From IMG/VR virus record IMGVR_UViG_2531839448_000002: a stretch of DNA of 11,023 nucleotides. One strand, written 5' to 3'. The number at the start of each line of letters is the position of its first letter. Within the stretch, counting starts at the first letter, position 1. Below are positions 4,185 to 11,023 of the stretch, piece by piece. The notes beneath the pieces are model-generated. The model was not told the DNA's origin. It saw only the letters and a program-made list of their open reading frames with translations, and searched no databases. The position numbers were made by a program, and so were the translations under genes. The DNA comes from a virus (Duplodnaviria > Heunggongvirae > Uroviricota > Caudoviricetes).

Positions 4185-4193
4185 CGCTATGCC
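4185..4193. repeat. Left copy of the 9-bp IS10 target-site duplication (CGCTATGCC)
   Basis: An identical 9-mer, CGCTATGCC, directly abuts both ends of the IS element (4185-4193 and 5524-5532). It contains the original SD-proximal ATG of V. Confidence 0.85.
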
Positions 4194-4222
4194 CTGATGA
4201 ATCCCCTAATGATTTTTATCAA

Positions 4223-4273
4223 AATCATTAAGTTAAGGTAGATACACATCTTGTCATATGATCAAATGGTTTC
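4223..4273 (+). promoter_or_regulatory. IS10 outside-end regulatory region: putative IHF site and pIN promoter with Dam GATC site
   Basis: AATCATTAAGTTA resembles an IHF consensus at the position expected in IS10 (about bp 30-42). GATC at 4260-4263 falls where the Dam-regulated -10 region of the transposase promoter pIN lies in IS10. Assignments are by position from recalled IS10 organisation, not measured. Confidence 0.4.
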
Positions 4274-4308
4274 GCCAAAAATCAATAATCAGACAACAAA
4301 ATGTGCGA
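4239..4308 (-). ncRNA. Putative IS10 antisense RNA-OUT, complementary to the transposase mRNA 5' end
   Basis: Placed by positional homology only: in IS10, RNA-OUT is transcribed outward from about bp 115 to bp 46 and overlaps the transposase start codon (here ATG 4301). Boundaries are approximate. Confidence 0.4.
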
Positions 4309-5510
4309 ACTCGATATTTTACACGACTCTCTTTACCAATTCTGCCCCGAATTACACTTAAAACGACTCAACAGCTTAACGTTGGCTTGCCACGCCTTAC
4401 TTGACTGTAAAACTCTCACTCTTACCGAACTTGGCCGTAACCTGCCAACCAAAGCGAGAACAAAACATAACATCAAACGAATCGACCGATTGTTAGGTAA
4501 TCGTCACCTCCACAAAGAGCGACTCGCTGTATACCGTTGGCATGCTAGCTTTATCTGTTCGGGCAATACGATGCCCATTGTACTTGTTGACTGGTCTGAT
4601 ATCCGTGAGCAAAAACGGCTTATGGTATTGCGAGCTTCAGTCGCACTACACGGTCGTTCTGTTACTCTTTATGAGAAAGCGTTCCCGCTTTCAGAGCAAT
4701 GTTCAAAGAAAGCTCATGACCAATTTCTAGCCGACCTTGCGAGCATTCTACCGAGTAACACCACACCGCTCATTGTCAGTGATGCTGGCTTTAAAGTGCC
4801 ATGGTATAAATCCGTTGAGAAGCTGGGTTGGTACTGGTTAAGTCGAGTAAGAGGAAAAGTACAATATGCAGACCTAGGAGCGGAAAACTGGAAACCTATC
4901 AGCAACTTACATGATATGTCATCTAGTCACTCAAAGACTTTAGGCTATAAGAGGCTGACTAAAAGCAATCCAATCTCATGCCAAATTCTATTGTATAAAT
5001 CTCGCTCTAAAGGCCGAAAAAATCAGCGCTCGACACGGACTCATTGTCACCACCCGTCACCTAAAATCTACTCAGCGTCGGCAAAGGAGCCATGGATTCT
5101 AGCAACTAACTTACCTGTTGAAATTCGAACACCCAAACAACTTGTTAATATCTATTCGAAGCGAATGCAGATTGAAGAAACCTTACCGAGACTTGAAAAG
5201 TCCTGCCTACGGACTAGGCCTACGCCATAGCCGAACGAGCAGCTCAGAGCGTTTTGATATCATGCTGCTAATCGCCCTGATGCTTCAACTAACATGTTGG
5301 CTTGCGGGCGTTCATGCTCAGAAACAAGGTTGGGACAAGCACTTCCAGGCTAACACAGTCAGAAATCGAAACGTACTCTCAACAGTTCGCTTAGGCATGG
5401 AAGTTTTGCGGCATTCTGGCTACACAATAACAAGGGAAGACTCACTCGTGGCTGCAACCCTGCTTACTCAAAATCTATTCACACATGGTTACGTTTTGGG
5501 GAAATTATGA
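4301..5510 (+). pseudogene. IS10 transposase, frameshifted (disrupted single ORF)
   Basis: The expected continuous ~402-aa ORF is split into 4301-5230 (309 aa, ending ...QIEETLPRLEKSCLRTRPTP) and a +1-phase ORF 5118-5510 (...KPYRDLKSPAYGLGLRHSRTSSSERFDIML...). Both parts read as transposase on either side of about 5181-5190 (ccttaccgag). The element is 1 bp longer than canonical IS10, consistent with a single-base insertion. Confidence 0.8.
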
Positions 5511-5523
5511 GGGGATCTCTCAG

Positions 5524-5532
5524 CGCTATGCC
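5524..5532. repeat. Right copy of the 9-bp IS10 target-site duplication (CGCTATGCC)
   Basis: Identical to 4185-4193. It contains the functional V start codon at 5528. Confidence 0.85.
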
Positions 5533-6268
5533 TGTACCAAATCCTGTAATGCCGGTGAAAGGTGCCGGGACCACCCTGTGGGTTTATAAGGGGAGCGGTG
5601 ACCCTTATGCGAATCCGCTTTCAGACGTTGACTGGTCGCGTCTGGCAAAAGTTAAAGACCTGACGCCCGGCGAACTGACCGCTGAGTCCTATGACGACAG
5701 CTATCTCGATGATGAAGATGCAGACTGGACTGCGACCGGGCAGGGGCAGAAATCTGCCGGAGATACCAGCTTCACGCTGGCGTGGATGCCCGGAGAGCAG
5801 GGGCAGCAGGCGCTGCTGGCGTGGTTTAATGAAGGCGATACCCGTGCCTATAAAATCCGCTTCCCGAACGGCACGGTCGATGTGTTCCGTGGCTGGGTCA
5901 GCAGTATCGGTAAGGCGGTGACGGCGAAGGAAGTGATCACCCGCACGGTGAAAGTCACCAATGTGGGACGTCCGTCGATGGCAGAAGATCGCAGCACGGT
6001 AACAGCGGCAACCGGTATGACCGTGACGCCAGCCAGCGCTTCCGTAGTGAAAGGGAAGAGCACCACGCTGACCGTGGCATTCCAGCCGGAAGGCGCAACC
6101 GACAAGAGCTTCCGTGCGGTGTCAGCGGATAAAACAAAAGCCACCGTGTCGGTCAGTGGTATGACCATCACCGTGAATGGCGTTGCTGCAGGTAAGGTCA
6201 ACATTCCGGTCGTATCCGGTAATGGTGAGTTTGCTGCGGTTGCAGAAATCACCGTCACCGCCAGTTAA
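5528..6268 (+). CDS. V: Major tail tube protein V (gpV-like) with C-terminal Ig-like domain
   Basis: The 246-aa product [36 protein letters not shown]...AEITVTAS matches lambda gpV. The C-terminal ~80 aa ([25 protein letters not shown]...) is the Ig-like (Big_2-type) domain. The ORF-track start at 5507 lies inside IS10 (see findings). Confidence 0.9.
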
Positions 6269-6283
6269 TCCGGAGAGTCAGAG

Positions 6284-6706
6284 ATGTTCCTGAAAACCGA
6301 ATCATTTGAACATAACGGCGTGACCGTCACGCTTTCTGAACTGTCAGCCCTGCAGCGTATTGAGCATCTCGCCCTGATGAAACGGCAGGCAGAACAGGCG
6401 GAGTCAGACAGCAACCGGCAGGTTACTGTGGAAGACGTCATCAGAACCGGTGCTTGTGTGGTGGCGATGTCCCTGTGGCATAACCATCCGAAGAAGACGC
6501 AGATGCCGTCCATGAATGAAGCCGTTAAACAGATTGAGCAGGAAGTGCTTACCACCTGGCCTACAGAGGCAATTTCTCATGCTGAAAACGTGGTGTACCG
6601 GCTGTCCGGTATGTATGAGTTTGTGGTGAATGATGCCCCTGAACAGGCAGAGGACGCTGGGCCTGCAGAGCCTGTTTCTGCGGGAAAGTGTTCGACGGTG
6701 AGCTGA
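6284..6706 (+). CDS. G: Tail assembly chaperone G (gpG-like)
   Basis: The 140-aa product MFLKTESFEHNGVTVTLSELSALQRIEHLALMKRQAEQ... matches lambda gpG. SD GGAGAG lies upstream. Confidence 0.9.
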   Translation: MFLKTESFEHNGVTVTLSELSALQRIEHLALMKRQAEQAESDSNRQVTVEDVIRTGACVVAMSLWHNHPKKTQMPSMNEAVKQIEQEVLTTWPTEAISHAENVVYRLSGMYEFVVNDAPEQAEDAGPAEPVSAGKCSTVS

Positions 6707-7122
6707 GTTTTGCCCTGAAACTGGCGCGCGAGATGGGGCGACCCGACTGGCGTGCCATGCTTGCCGGGATGTCATCCACGGAGTATGCCGACTGGCACCG
6801 CTTTTACAGTACCCATTATTTTCATGATGTTCTGCTGGATATGCACTTTTCCGGGCTGACGTACACCGTGCTCAGCCTGTTTTTCAGCGATCCGGATATG
6901 CATCCGCTGGATTTCAGTCTGCTGAACCGGCGTGAGGCTGACGAAGAGCCTGAAGATGATGTGCTGATGCAGAAAGCGGCAGGGCTTGCCGGAGGCGTTC
7001 GTTTTGGCCCGGACGGGAATGAAGTTATCCCCGCTTCCCCGGATGTGGCGGACATGACGGAGGATGACGTAATGCTGATGACAGTATCAGAAGGGATCGC
7101 AGGAGGAGTCCGGTATGGCTGA
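6284..7122 (+). CDS. GT: Tail assembly chaperone GT, made by -1 programmed ribosomal frameshift from G into T
   Basis: Slippery heptamer G GGA AAG is in the G zero frame at 6682-6688. The -1 frame continues as ORF 6688-7122 (MFDGELSFALKLAREMGRPDWRAMLAGMSS...), which has no SD or independent start context and matches the lambda T segment. Confidence 0.8.
6682..6688 (+). other. -1 programmed ribosomal frameshift slippery site (G GGA AAG) for G/GT
   Basis: The X XXY YYZ heptamer GGGAAAG is in phase with G codons (gcG GGA AAG tgt), 6 codons before the G stop, and the T reading frame opens in the -1 phase. Confidence 0.8.
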
Positions 7123-9694
7123 ACCGGTAGGCGATCTGGTCGTTGATTTAAGTCTGGATGCGGCCAGATTTGACGAGCAGATGGCCAGAGTCAGGCGTCA
7201 TTTTTCCGGTACGGAAACTGATGCGAAAAAAACAGCGGCAGTCGTTGAACAGTCGCTGAGCCGACAGGCGCTGGCTGCACAGAAAGCGGGGATTTCCGTC
7301 GGGCAGTATAAAGCCGCCATGCGTATGCTGCCTGCACAGTTCACCGACGTGGCCACGCAGCTTGCAGGCGGGCAAAGTCCGTGGCTGATCCTGCTGCAAC
7401 AGGGTGGTCAGGTTAAGGACTCCTTCGGCGGGATGATCCCCATGTTCAGGGGGCTTGCCGGTGCGATCACCCTGCCGATGGTGGGGGCCACCTCGCTGGC
7501 GGTGGCGACCGGTGCGCTGGCGTATGCCTGGTATCAGGGCAACTCAACCCTGTCCGATTTCAACAAAAGGCTGGTCCTTTCCGGCAATCAGGCGGGACTG
7601 ACGGCAGATCGTATTCTGGCCCTGTCCAGAGCCGGGCAGGCGGCAGGGCTGACGTTTAACCAGACCAGCGAGTCACTGACGGCGCTGGTGAATGCCGGTG
7701 TGCGTGGTGGTGAGCAGTTTGAGGCGATCAGCCAGAGTGTGGCGCGTTTCTCCTCTGCATCCGGCGTGGAGGTGGACAAGGTCGCTGAAGCCTTCGGGAA
7801 GCTGACCACAGACCCGACGTCGGGACTGACAGCGATGGCACGTCAGTTCCATAACGTGACGGCGGAGCAGATTGCGTATGTTGCTCAGTTGCAGCGTTCC
7901 GGAGATGAAGCCGGGGCATTGCAGGCGGCGAACGAGGCCGCAACGAAAGGGTTTGATGACCAGACCCGCCGCCTGAAAGAGAACATGGGCACGCTGGAGA
8001 CCTGGGCAGACAGGACAGCACGGGCATTCAAATCCATGTGGGATTCGGTGCTGGATATTGGTCGCCCGGACACTGCCCAGGGAATGCTGGAGAAAGCAGA
8101 AAAGGCTTTTGATGAGGCGGACAAAAAATGGCAGTGGTATCAGAGCCGGAGCCACCGGCGCGGTAAAACCTCAGCATTTCTTGCCAATCTCCGGGGAGCA
8201 TGGGAGGACAGAGCGAATGCGCAACTTGGGCTTTCAGCCGCCACGTTGCAGGCCGATCTTGAAAAGGCCAGAGAGATGGCAGCAAAGGACTGGGCCGAGT
8301 CTGAGGCATCACGGCTGAAATATACCGAAGAGGCGCAGAAGGCTTACGAACGCCTGCAGACGCCGCTGGAGAAATATACCGCCCGTCAGGAAGAACTGAA
8401 CAAGGCACTGAAAGACGGGAAAATCCTGCAGGCAGATTACAACACGCTGATGGCGGCGGCGAAAAAGGATTATGAAGCGACGCTGAAAAAGCCGAAACAG
8501 TCCGGCGTGAAAGTGTCTGCGGGCGATCGTCAGGAAGACAGTGCTCATGCTGCCCTGCTGACGCTTCAGGCTGAACTCCGGACGCTGGAGAAGCATGCCG
8601 GAGCAAATGAGAAAATCAGCCAGCAGCGCCGGGATTTGTGGAAGGCGGAGAGTCAGTTCGCGGTACTGGAGGAGGCGGCGCAACGTCGCCAGCTGTCCGC
8701 ACAGGAGAAATCCCTGCTGGCGCATAAAGATGAGACGCTGGAGTACAAACGCCAGCTGGCTGCACTTGGCGACAAGGTTACGTATCAGGAGCGCCTGAAC
8801 GCGCTGGCGCAGCAGGCGGATAAATTCGCACAGCAGCAACGGGCAAAACGGGCCGCCATTGATGCGAAAAGCCGGGGGCTGACTGACCGGCAGGCAGCGC
8901 GGGAAGCCACGGAACAGCGCCTGAAGGAACAGTATGGCGATAATCCGCTGGCGCTGAATAACGTCATGTCAGAGCAGAAAAAGACCTGGGCGGCTGAAGA
9001 CCAGCTTCGCGGGAGCTGGATGGCAGGCCTGACGTCCGGCTGGAGTGAGTGGGAAGAGAGCGCCACGGACAGTATGTCGCAGGTAAAAAGTGCAGCCACG
9101 CAGACCTTTGATGGTATTGCACAGAATATGGCGGCGATGCTGACCGGCAGTGAGCAGAACTGGCGCAGCTTCACCCGTTCCGTGCTGTCCATGATGACAG
9201 AAATTCTGCTTAAGCAGGCAATGGTGGGGATTGTCGGGAGTATCGGCAGCGCCATTGGCGGGGCTGTTGGTGGCGGCGCATCCGCGTCAGGCGGTACAGC
9301 CATTCAGGCCGCTGCGGCGAAATTCCATTTTGCAACCGGAGGATTTACGGGAACCGGCGGCAAATATGAGCCAGCGGGGATTGTTCACCGTGGTGAATTT
9401 GTCTTCACAAAGGAGGCAACCAGCCGGATTGGCGTGGGGAATCTCTACCGGCTGATGCGCGGCTATGCCACCGGTGGTTATGTCGGTACACCGGGCAGTC
9501 TGGCTGACAGCCGATCGCAGGCGTCCGGGACGTTTGAGCAGAATAACCATGTGGTGATTAACAACGACGGCACGAACGGGCAGATAGGTCCGGCTGCTCT
9601 GAAGGCGGTGTATGACATGGCCCGCAAGGGTGCCCGTGATGAAATTCAGACACAGATGCGTGATGGTGGACTGTTCTCCGGAGGTGGACGATGA
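7115..9694 (+). CDS. H: Tail tape measure protein H (gpH-like), 859 aa
   Basis: MAEPVGDLVVDLSLDAARFDEQMARVRRHF... has a long Ala/Gln/Lys-rich predicted helical middle and a Gly-rich C-terminal region (GIVGSIGSAIGGAVGGGASASGGTAIQ...), matching lambda gpH. It overlaps the T stop and the M start (ATGA). Confidence 0.93.
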   Translation: MAEPVGDLVVDLSLDAARFDEQMARVRRHFSGTETDAKKTAAVVEQSLSRQALAAQKAGISVGQYKAAMRMLPAQFTDVATQLAGGQSPWLILLQQGGQVKDSFGGMIPMFRGLAGAITLPMVGATSLAVATGALAYAWYQGNSTLSDFNKRLVLSGNQAGLTADRILALSRAGQAAGLTFNQTSESLTALVNAGVRGGEQFEAISQSVARFSSASGVEVDKVAEAFGKLTTDPTSGLTAMARQFHNVTAEQIAYVAQLQRSGDEAGALQAANEAATKGFDDQTRRLKENMGTLETWADRTARAFKSMWDSVLDIGRPDTAQGMLEKAEKAFDEADKKWQWYQSRSHRRGKTSAFLANLRGAWEDRANAQLGLSAATLQADLEKAREMAAKDWAESEASRLKYTEEAQKAYERLQTPLEKYTARQEELNKALKDGKILQADYNTLMAAAKKDYEATLKKPKQSGVKVSAGDRQEDSAHAALLTLQAELRTLEKHAGANEKISQQRRDLWKAESQFAVLEEAAQRRQLSAQEKSLLAHKDETLEYKRQLAALGDKVTYQERLNALAQQADKFAQQQRAKRAAIDAKSRGLTDRQAAREATEQRLKEQYGDNPLALNNVMSEQKKTWAAEDQLRGSWMAGLTSGWSEWEESATDSMSQVKSAATQTFDGIAQNMAAMLTGSEQNWRSFTRSVLSMMTEILLKQAMVGIVGSIGSAIGGAVGGGASASGGTAIQAAAAKFHFATGGFTGTGGKYEPAGIVHRGEFVFTKEATSRIGVGNLYRLMRGYATGGYVGTPGSLADSRSQASGTFEQNNHVVINNDGTNGQIGPAALKAVYDMARKGARDEIQTQMRDGGLFSGGGR

Positions 9695-10722: not shown

Positions 10723-11023
10723 ATGACAGAGACAGAATCAGCGATTCTGGCGCACGCCCGGCGATGTGCGCCAGCGGAGTCGTGCGGCTTCGTGGTGAGA
10801 ACGCCGGAGGGGGAAAGATATTTTCCCTGCGTGAATATTTCCGGTGAGCCGGAGGATTATTTCCGGATGGCTCCGGAGGACTGGCTGCAGGCAGAAATGC
10901 AGGGTGAGATTGTGGCGCTGGTCCACAGCCACCCCGGTGGTCTGCCCTGGCTGAGTGAGGCCGACCGGCGGCTGCAGGTGCAGAGTGATTTGCCGTGGTG
11001 GCTGGTCTGCCGGGGGACGATTC
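10723..11023 (+). CDS. K: Tail tip assembly protein K (gpK-like, MPN/JAMM plus NlpC/P60), 3'-truncated by the window edge
   Basis: ATG at 10723 is 4 nt after the L stop. The translation MTETESAILAHARRCAPAESCGFVVRTPEGERYFPCVNISGEPEDYFRMAPEDWLQAEMQGEIVALVHSHPGGLPWLSEADRRLQ... matches the lambda gpK N-terminus, including the HxH...S..D JAMM-type motif. The frame is open to the window end. It is absent from the ORF track because there is no stop in the window. Confidence 0.88.
   Translation, partial: MTETESAILAHARRCAPAESCGFVVRTPEGERYFPCVNISGEPEDYFRMAPEDWLQAEMQGEIVALVHSHPGGLPWLSEADRRLQVQSDLPWWLVCRGTI

Follow-up and report, generated by a model that had tools for sequence, protein, structure and literature searches.

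A lambda-type G/GT tail assembly chaperone frameshift cassette in a lambda-like prophage with an upstream IS10 insertion

The stretch of viral DNA analysed here, 11,023 nucleotides in length and referred to as the window, carries two consecutive reading frames, G and T, whose relationship is the subject of this work. Are these frames two separate genes, as a plain open reading frame (ORF) track would present them, or a single cassette in which the second frame is reached only by ribosomes that slip back by one base? A sequence-only reading of the window had proposed the latter and had assigned the pair to the tail assembly chaperone frameshift of phage lambda. The locus proved to be, almost certainly, a G/GT cassette of that type. 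Its anatomy, homology, synteny, near-identity to lambda and slip-site conservation are directly observed, while the occurrence of the slip, its frequency and the roles of G and GT would follow from published work on lambda.

Anatomy and identity of the G/T region

Gene G extends from 6284 to 6706 on the plus strand; it starts with an ATG and encodes the zero-frame tail assembly chaperone of 140 aa. The codons of its frame start at 6683, so that the GGGAAAG heptamer located at 6682-6688 of the same strand is read G GGA AAG, a tandem -1 slip site where Gly134-Lys135 would be decoded in either frame. The G frame continues 3' of AAG with TGT TCG ACG GTG AGC and ends with the TGA at 6704-6706; as five sense codons separate AAG from the stop, the latter is the sixth codon past the slip codon. 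The -1 frame stays free of stops from 6643 until the TGA at 7120-7122, a length of 159 codons in total and of 146 when counted from the first base of the heptamer. Both frames are consequently open along 6643-6706 of the plus strand, which defines the G/T overlap. The T segment proper (6688-7122, plus strand) begins with GTG and consists of 144 codons and a stop. When G is translated through AAG and then in the -1 frame from 6688, a fusion of 279 aa is obtained, of which T forms the C-terminal part. The G stop itself is embedded in two conserved codons of the T frame, GAG CTG (Glu-Leu). Direct reading of the sequence therefore upholds the earlier placement of the heptamer in the zero frame six codons before the G stop, as well as the 144-codon ORF in the -1 frame and the absence of a stop just past the slip site, this frame being open to 7122. 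The description is refined in two small respects, as the -1 frame is already open from 6643 and the product read across the slip has 279 aa.

The genetic neighborhood is that expected for such a cassette in lambda. The G/T pair is located between the tail tube and the tape-measure genes, in the same V-G-T-H order. Gene V (5528-6268, plus strand; Pfam Phage_TTP_12 and Big_2) lies directly 5' of G and codes for the T-domain partner, which is the major tail tube protein. Gene H (7115-9694, plus strand; Pfam TMP_2 and Tape_meas_lam_C) encodes the tape-measure protein, the client of the G/GT chaperones, and its start codon, an ATG, lies within the 3' end of T (ATGGCTGA). Pfam assigns Z, U, V, H, M and L around G/T; taken as a whole, the window represents the head-tail late operon of a lambdoid phage.

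Both parts of the fusion belong to recognised families. G matches Pfam PF06894 (Phage_TAC_2) with an E-value of 1.5e-57 and the NCBIfam equivalog TIGR01674 (phage_lambda_G) over residues 1-136 of the fusion, with 210.7 bits for a cut-off of 74.45. T matches Pfam PF06223 (Phage_tail_T) and the NCBIfam equivalog TIGR01715 (phage_lam_T) over fusion residues 140-245, with 185.8 bits for a cut-off of 77.35. The homology to the T family therefore begins only 5 residues past the slip. A single family of 290 positions, phrog_32165, spans both G (positions 1-142) and T (positions 140-285). A sequence search of the PDB with G or GT returned no relatives.

The comparison with lambda points the same way, and no feature of the sequence speaks against a cassette of the lambda type. 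Over 6200-7300 the identity to lambda is 97.5%, and with other lambdoid phages it reaches as much as 98.7%. The lengths of G (423 nt) and T (435 nt) agree with those in lambda, the alignment from G to T is devoid of indels, and the slip heptamer is likewise shared, as are the frame in which it is read and the distance that separates it from the stop. Identity with lambda and with phage 434 is base for base from 17 bases 5' to 39 bases 3' of the heptamer. The GT proteins are 96.5% identical; about 10 amino-acid changes are scattered along the sequence, nearly all of them in G, and include K46Q, F47V, F58C, L59V, Q70K, N125D and T130A. The identity to lambda, the two equivalogs, the synteny, the conservation of the slip site described below and the curated records of related phages together bear out the earlier assignment to the lambda-type tail assembly chaperone frameshift. 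The frameshift of the window is the already known textbook case of lambda; the prophage that carries it here is lambda-like, with about 97% identity to that phage.

The heptamer by itself carries no such information. GGGAAAG is present twice in the window against 1.55 copies expected from shuffles, and the bare motif is hence no rarer than chance would have it. As it is not enriched, its significance had to rest on frame, context and conservation. The second copy is located at 10811-10817, beyond the end of L (10718) and in none of the listed plus-strand ORFs; by comparison with lambda this position is expected to be the L-K intergenic gap, and nothing suggests a function. When the 12 structural genes of the plus strand (2,962 codons) are considered, 6 in-frame heptamers of the strict X_XXY_YYZ form are found. 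Only that of G is followed by a long -1 ORF (146 codons versus 3-48 for the others), and this ORF encodes a protein family recognised by both Pfam and NCBIfam.

The slip site, its conservation and the sequences around it

The functioning of the cassette can be briefly outlined by analogy with lambda. The majority of ribosomes would read GGA-AAG and five further codons before terminating at TGA, which would yield the 140-aa gpG. A minor fraction (about 4% in lambda) would slip back by one base on G GGA AAG. The P-site tRNA-Gly would then re-pair from GGA to GGG and the A-site tRNA-Lys (anticodon mnm5s2UUU) from AAG to AAA. The slipped ribosomes would proceed in the -1 frame from the GTG at 6688 to 7119 and produce the 279-aa gpGT. 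The G part common to both products is expected to bind the tape-measure protein H, the T part would recruit the tail tube protein V, and both G and GT would be absent from the virion.

This outline follows published work on lambda, where gpG and gpGT are made in a ratio of roughly 30:1 and are both required for tail assembly (PMC5009743). In that phage, the binding partner of the G part is the tape-measure protein and that of the T part the tail tube protein, both chaperones are left out of the virion, and the G_GGA_AAG sequence is highly shift-prone in E. coli (PMC5009743). The zero frame is retained about 96% of the time, and the thiolation of U34 in tRNA-Lys tunes the G:GT ratio (PMC3296357). 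The mechanism and the roles of both proteins are also covered in PMC7618472, and the original reports (Levin, Hendrix and Casjens 1993; Xu, Hendrix and Duda 2004, 2013, 2014) are referred to here as cited in PMC5009743. A discrepancy was noticed within one of these sources: the text of section 9 of PMC3296357 gives the lambda slippery sequence as GGGTTTG (GGT-TTG / GGG-TTT), whereas GGGAAAG is listed in Table 1 of the paper. It is the tabulated form that matches the sequence, and the GGGTTTG of the text therefore appears to be an error.

In order to evaluate the conservation of the slip site, relatives were gathered from a phage collection and from IMG/VR, using fusion proteins of the lambda, N15, cdtI and Vibrio HY01 types as queries. 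An alignment used as query against IMG/VR added no loci beyond the close lambda-like ones already obtained with a single protein, and separate cdtI, N15 and HY01 queries were used. The 278 loci collected comprise 270 with intact G and T, which represent 102 distinct overlap sequences, and 8 with broken G or T frames, which were excluded from the counts. In the IMG/VR loci L012, L013, L014, L064, L178, L179 and L180, G or T is interrupted by an early stop or a break of the frame. The frame-broken loci display 65-88% best-segment identity to the query (99% for L064) and could be decaying prophages or assembly errors.

All of the distinct overlap sequences (102/102) carry N_NNA_AAG or C_CCA_AAA, 6 or 2 codons from the G stop. 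At the level of named lineages, a slip-prone heptamer is present within the G/T overlap in 11 out of 11, from 97% down to about 32% protein identity. GGGAAAG is found in lambda and PhiR12_2, AAAAAAG in the Stx phages, GGAAAAG in N15, phi80, mEp213, LLS and cdtI, and CCCAAAA in Vibrio HY01. The constant element among these relatives is the A-site A_AAG or A_AAA, a pattern consistent with slippage of the single tRNA-Lys of E. coli (PMC5009743). In N15, phi80, mEp213, LLS and the Stx phages, G and T are homologous to those of the window (47-75% identity) and the slip site keeps its place, with six codons to a TGA contained in GAG CTG A, but the P-site part of the heptamer differs. The G_GAA_AAG of N15, phi80, mEp213 and LLS is not a strict X_XXY_YYZ sequence, so that only the A-site Lys tRNA would re-pair perfectly. 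The T of these five types is also shorter than those of the window and lambda, as it lacks their C-terminal extension of about 30 aa.

The possible contribution of RNA structure was considered as well. A useful point of comparison is the dnaX gene of E. coli, with its A_AAA_AAG site. Its frameshifting reaches about 50% and depends on two stimulators, a Shine-Dalgarno-like sequence upstream and a strong hairpin 3' of the site, whereas the frameshift level of the window type is low and any stimulator is a candidate only. The slip is otherwise of the same tandem kind, with tRNA-Lys(UUU) on A_AAG (PMC5009743). The candidate of the window is a weak one. It begins 8 nt 3' of the heptamer (6697-6765, plus strand) and was predicted as a bipartite fold within the 84-100 nt that follow the slip site. 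Its outer helix, in which 6697-6703 would pair with 6759-6765, encloses the G stop, and its inner hairpin would pair 6722-6737 with 6743-6757. An upstream hairpin at 6662-6684 was set aside because the first GGG of the heptamer forms part of its 3' arm, which would melt inside the ribosome.

Several observations are in favor of this fold. In 11 divergent sequences, 92.8% of cells are paired, with 5 pairs changed on both sides, and only 0-2 of 500 shuffles score as high. The stability measured against synonymous recoding corresponds to a z of -2.6 in the window and of -1.9 to -3.75 in nine relatives. In relatives of the lambda, Stx, N15 and phi80 types the pairing holds (96-98% of cells). In the cdtI and HY01 types, the structure is not kept (64-68% of cells paired). 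A single clear compensatory pair is present, a GC<->AU exchange at 6697/6765, the Arg codons of the stems vary freely at their third positions, a non-pairing A included, and the RNAalifold consensus on 66 distinct sequences collapses to -1.6 kcal/mol. Among 175 control windows taken from the same operon and evaluated with the same null, 2.9% reach a z of -2.6 or below. Moreover, the signal is confounded by the strong amino-acid conservation of the region (LAREMGRPDWRAMLAGM). The lambda site is not known to depend on a defined 3' stimulator. An Rfam scan of the window recovered no frameshift element family, the sole match being RNA-OUT of IS10. A bipartite 3' RNA structure selected in the lambda/Stx/N15/phi80 clade and tuning a low frameshift level is accordingly considered doubtful, with a probability that we place well on the low side.

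Alternative origins of T and the IS10 insertion

The proposal that T is translated by slippage has to be weighed against an ordinary start of its own. Historically, T was annotated as a separate gene starting at the GTG at 6688. RefSeq lambda still displays a stand-alone T coding sequence at the equivalent position, and starts at an internal ATG are annotated in several phage records; the heptamer would then be incidental. The predicted anti-Shine-Dalgarno pairing is weak or mis-spaced at this GTG (-4.3 kcal/mol with a 1-nt spacing) and at the next three in-frame ATGs (-1.8 to -2.2 kcal/mol), versus -6.6 to -10.8 kcal/mol for most genes of the operon. The sequence-only reading had stated that T lacks a ribosome-binding site of its own, and these values fit the statement. 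As D, E and FI are real genes whose pairing is also weak, this argument is supportive and cannot be decisive alone. Further evidence comes from the relatives. The GTG at the position of 6688 is observed only in lambda among six relatives and is absent from PhiR12_2, the Stx phages, N15, LLS and mEp213; phi80, cdtI and HY01 do not have a start codon at this position either. PhiR12_2 lacks it in spite of its GGGAAAG (GGGAAAGTC), the GTG arising only where the heptamer happens to precede TG. Internal starts fare no better, as the T-family profile begins 5 residues past the slip, before any internal ATG is reached. The T frame of LLS and mEp213 has its first start codon 75 nt downstream, inside the invariant DWRAMLAGM motif, and the ELxFxLxLAREFGRPDW stretch located between the slip and this start is conserved nonetheless. 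In addition, published work on lambda, as summarised in PMC5009743, found the G-T protein and not free T. Judged from these sequence comparisons, independent initiation of T at the GTG at 6688 or at an internal ATG is unlikely, and T as an ordinary gene next to an incidental heptamer is given a very small probability.

If ribosomes do not start at T, the fusion might in principle be produced one step earlier, by slippage of the RNA polymerase resulting in an mRNA with an extra or missing base. The relatives of the Stx type carry a run of six A at the site (AAAAAAG), which is nearer to the runs that support transcriptional slippage. The window only offers GGG and AAA, three bases each. Judging by known cases, runs of three bases are far too short for transcriptional slippage, and this origin is implausible here for that very reason. 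What is conserved across clades is the A_AAG motif of the A-site and its frame, not a homopolymer run, and the lambda frameshift level responds to the modification of tRNA-Lys (PMC3296357), which points to the ribosome. The transcriptional origin is thus retained as barely conceivable, even less probable than a separate T gene, and slippage of the ribosome on G GGA AAG is the reading followed below.

A different reservation concerns the expression of this particular copy. An IS10 element (ISVsa5) of 1330 bp occupies 4194-5523, in the start-codon region of V and 760 bp upstream of G, which is a difference between this genome and lambda. The element is flanked by a 9-bp target duplication, CGCTATGCC, at 4185-4193 and 5524-5532, and its antisense RNA, RNA-OUT, is recognised by Rfam at 4239-4308 on the minus strand. 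Comparison with lambda places the insertion target in the start-codon region of V, whose ATG was therefore duplicated. The left copy of this ATG now opens an ORF of 2 codons (ATG CCC TGA), while V retains the ATG at 5528 and an intact ORF, with 242 of 246 residues identical to lambda V (98%). The native Shine-Dalgarno sequence of V is displaced by the insertion, and a GAGGGG is found 12 nt upstream of the V ATG. Another ATG, at 5507, lies within the IS10 right end. It shares the frame of V and would extend the protein by 7 residues (MRGSLSA; positions 5507-5527 of the window). V consequently appears with 253 aa instead of 246 in the ORF list.

The transposase gene of this element differs from that of an intact ISVsa5 copy by one extra A at 5185 (ETF becoming ETL...). 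This +1 frameshift splits the 402-aa gene into two frames, 4301-5230 and 5118-5510, and the extra base is either the mark of a dead IS copy or a sequencing error. With its transposase frameshifted, this IS10 would be unable to supply its own enzyme. A search for the U-IS10 junction in 5,426 complete E. coli genomes gave no match (0/5,426), and neither did the GTDB species representatives, a result that suggests that the insertion is recent or private. IS10 could reduce the transcription or translation of V-G-T-H, in which case the cassette would be intact but poorly expressed.

Taken to its extreme, this possibility makes the cassette a silent remnant of a defective prophage, its late operon split by IS10 at the start of V and devoid of any consequential frameshifting. 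The displacement of the native V Shine-Dalgarno by an element bordered by the CGCTATGCC duplication, the +1 frameshift of the transposase and the absence of the junction from the complete E. coli genomes and GTDB representatives can be cited in its favor. On the other hand, all 12 structural genes of the window (12/12) are full-length, V is 98% identical to its lambda counterpart and its ATG is kept behind the GAGGGG. Late transcription in lambda is antiterminated by Q and reads through terminators. A silent remnant is on balance unlikely, while deserving more weight than any of the other alternatives, and it bears on the expression of this copy and not on the identity of the element, which remains that of a ribosomal G/GT frameshift cassette.

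Annotation of the cassette

The status of G and T in public records is uneven. The curated records of phages 434 and LLS annotate the same site as a joined, frameshifted coding sequence, and those of N15 and LLS include a slippery-sequence feature. The frameshift is marked only in some public records, namely those of 434, LLS, HK630 and N15. Many others, including RefSeq lambda (locus L002 of the present collection, 6712-7550), display G and T as two separate coding sequences, and T is often started at an internal ATG, with a loss of conserved residues. Records in which the annotation of G/T is at issue include L005 (1059-1472), L006 (1127-1435), L010 (1284-1556) and L173 (1083-1355). The earlier warning that a plain ORF track misreads the cassette as two genes is therefore substantiated by RefSeq lambda and by many further records.

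The practical value of the analysis lies in annotation: the locus should be described as gpG and a 279-aa gpGT instead of G and a T that is either start-less or falsely started. Its occurrence in a lambda-like prophage adds nothing new to the biology, which is the classic one, a chaperone ratio set by slippage and needed for a tail of the right length.
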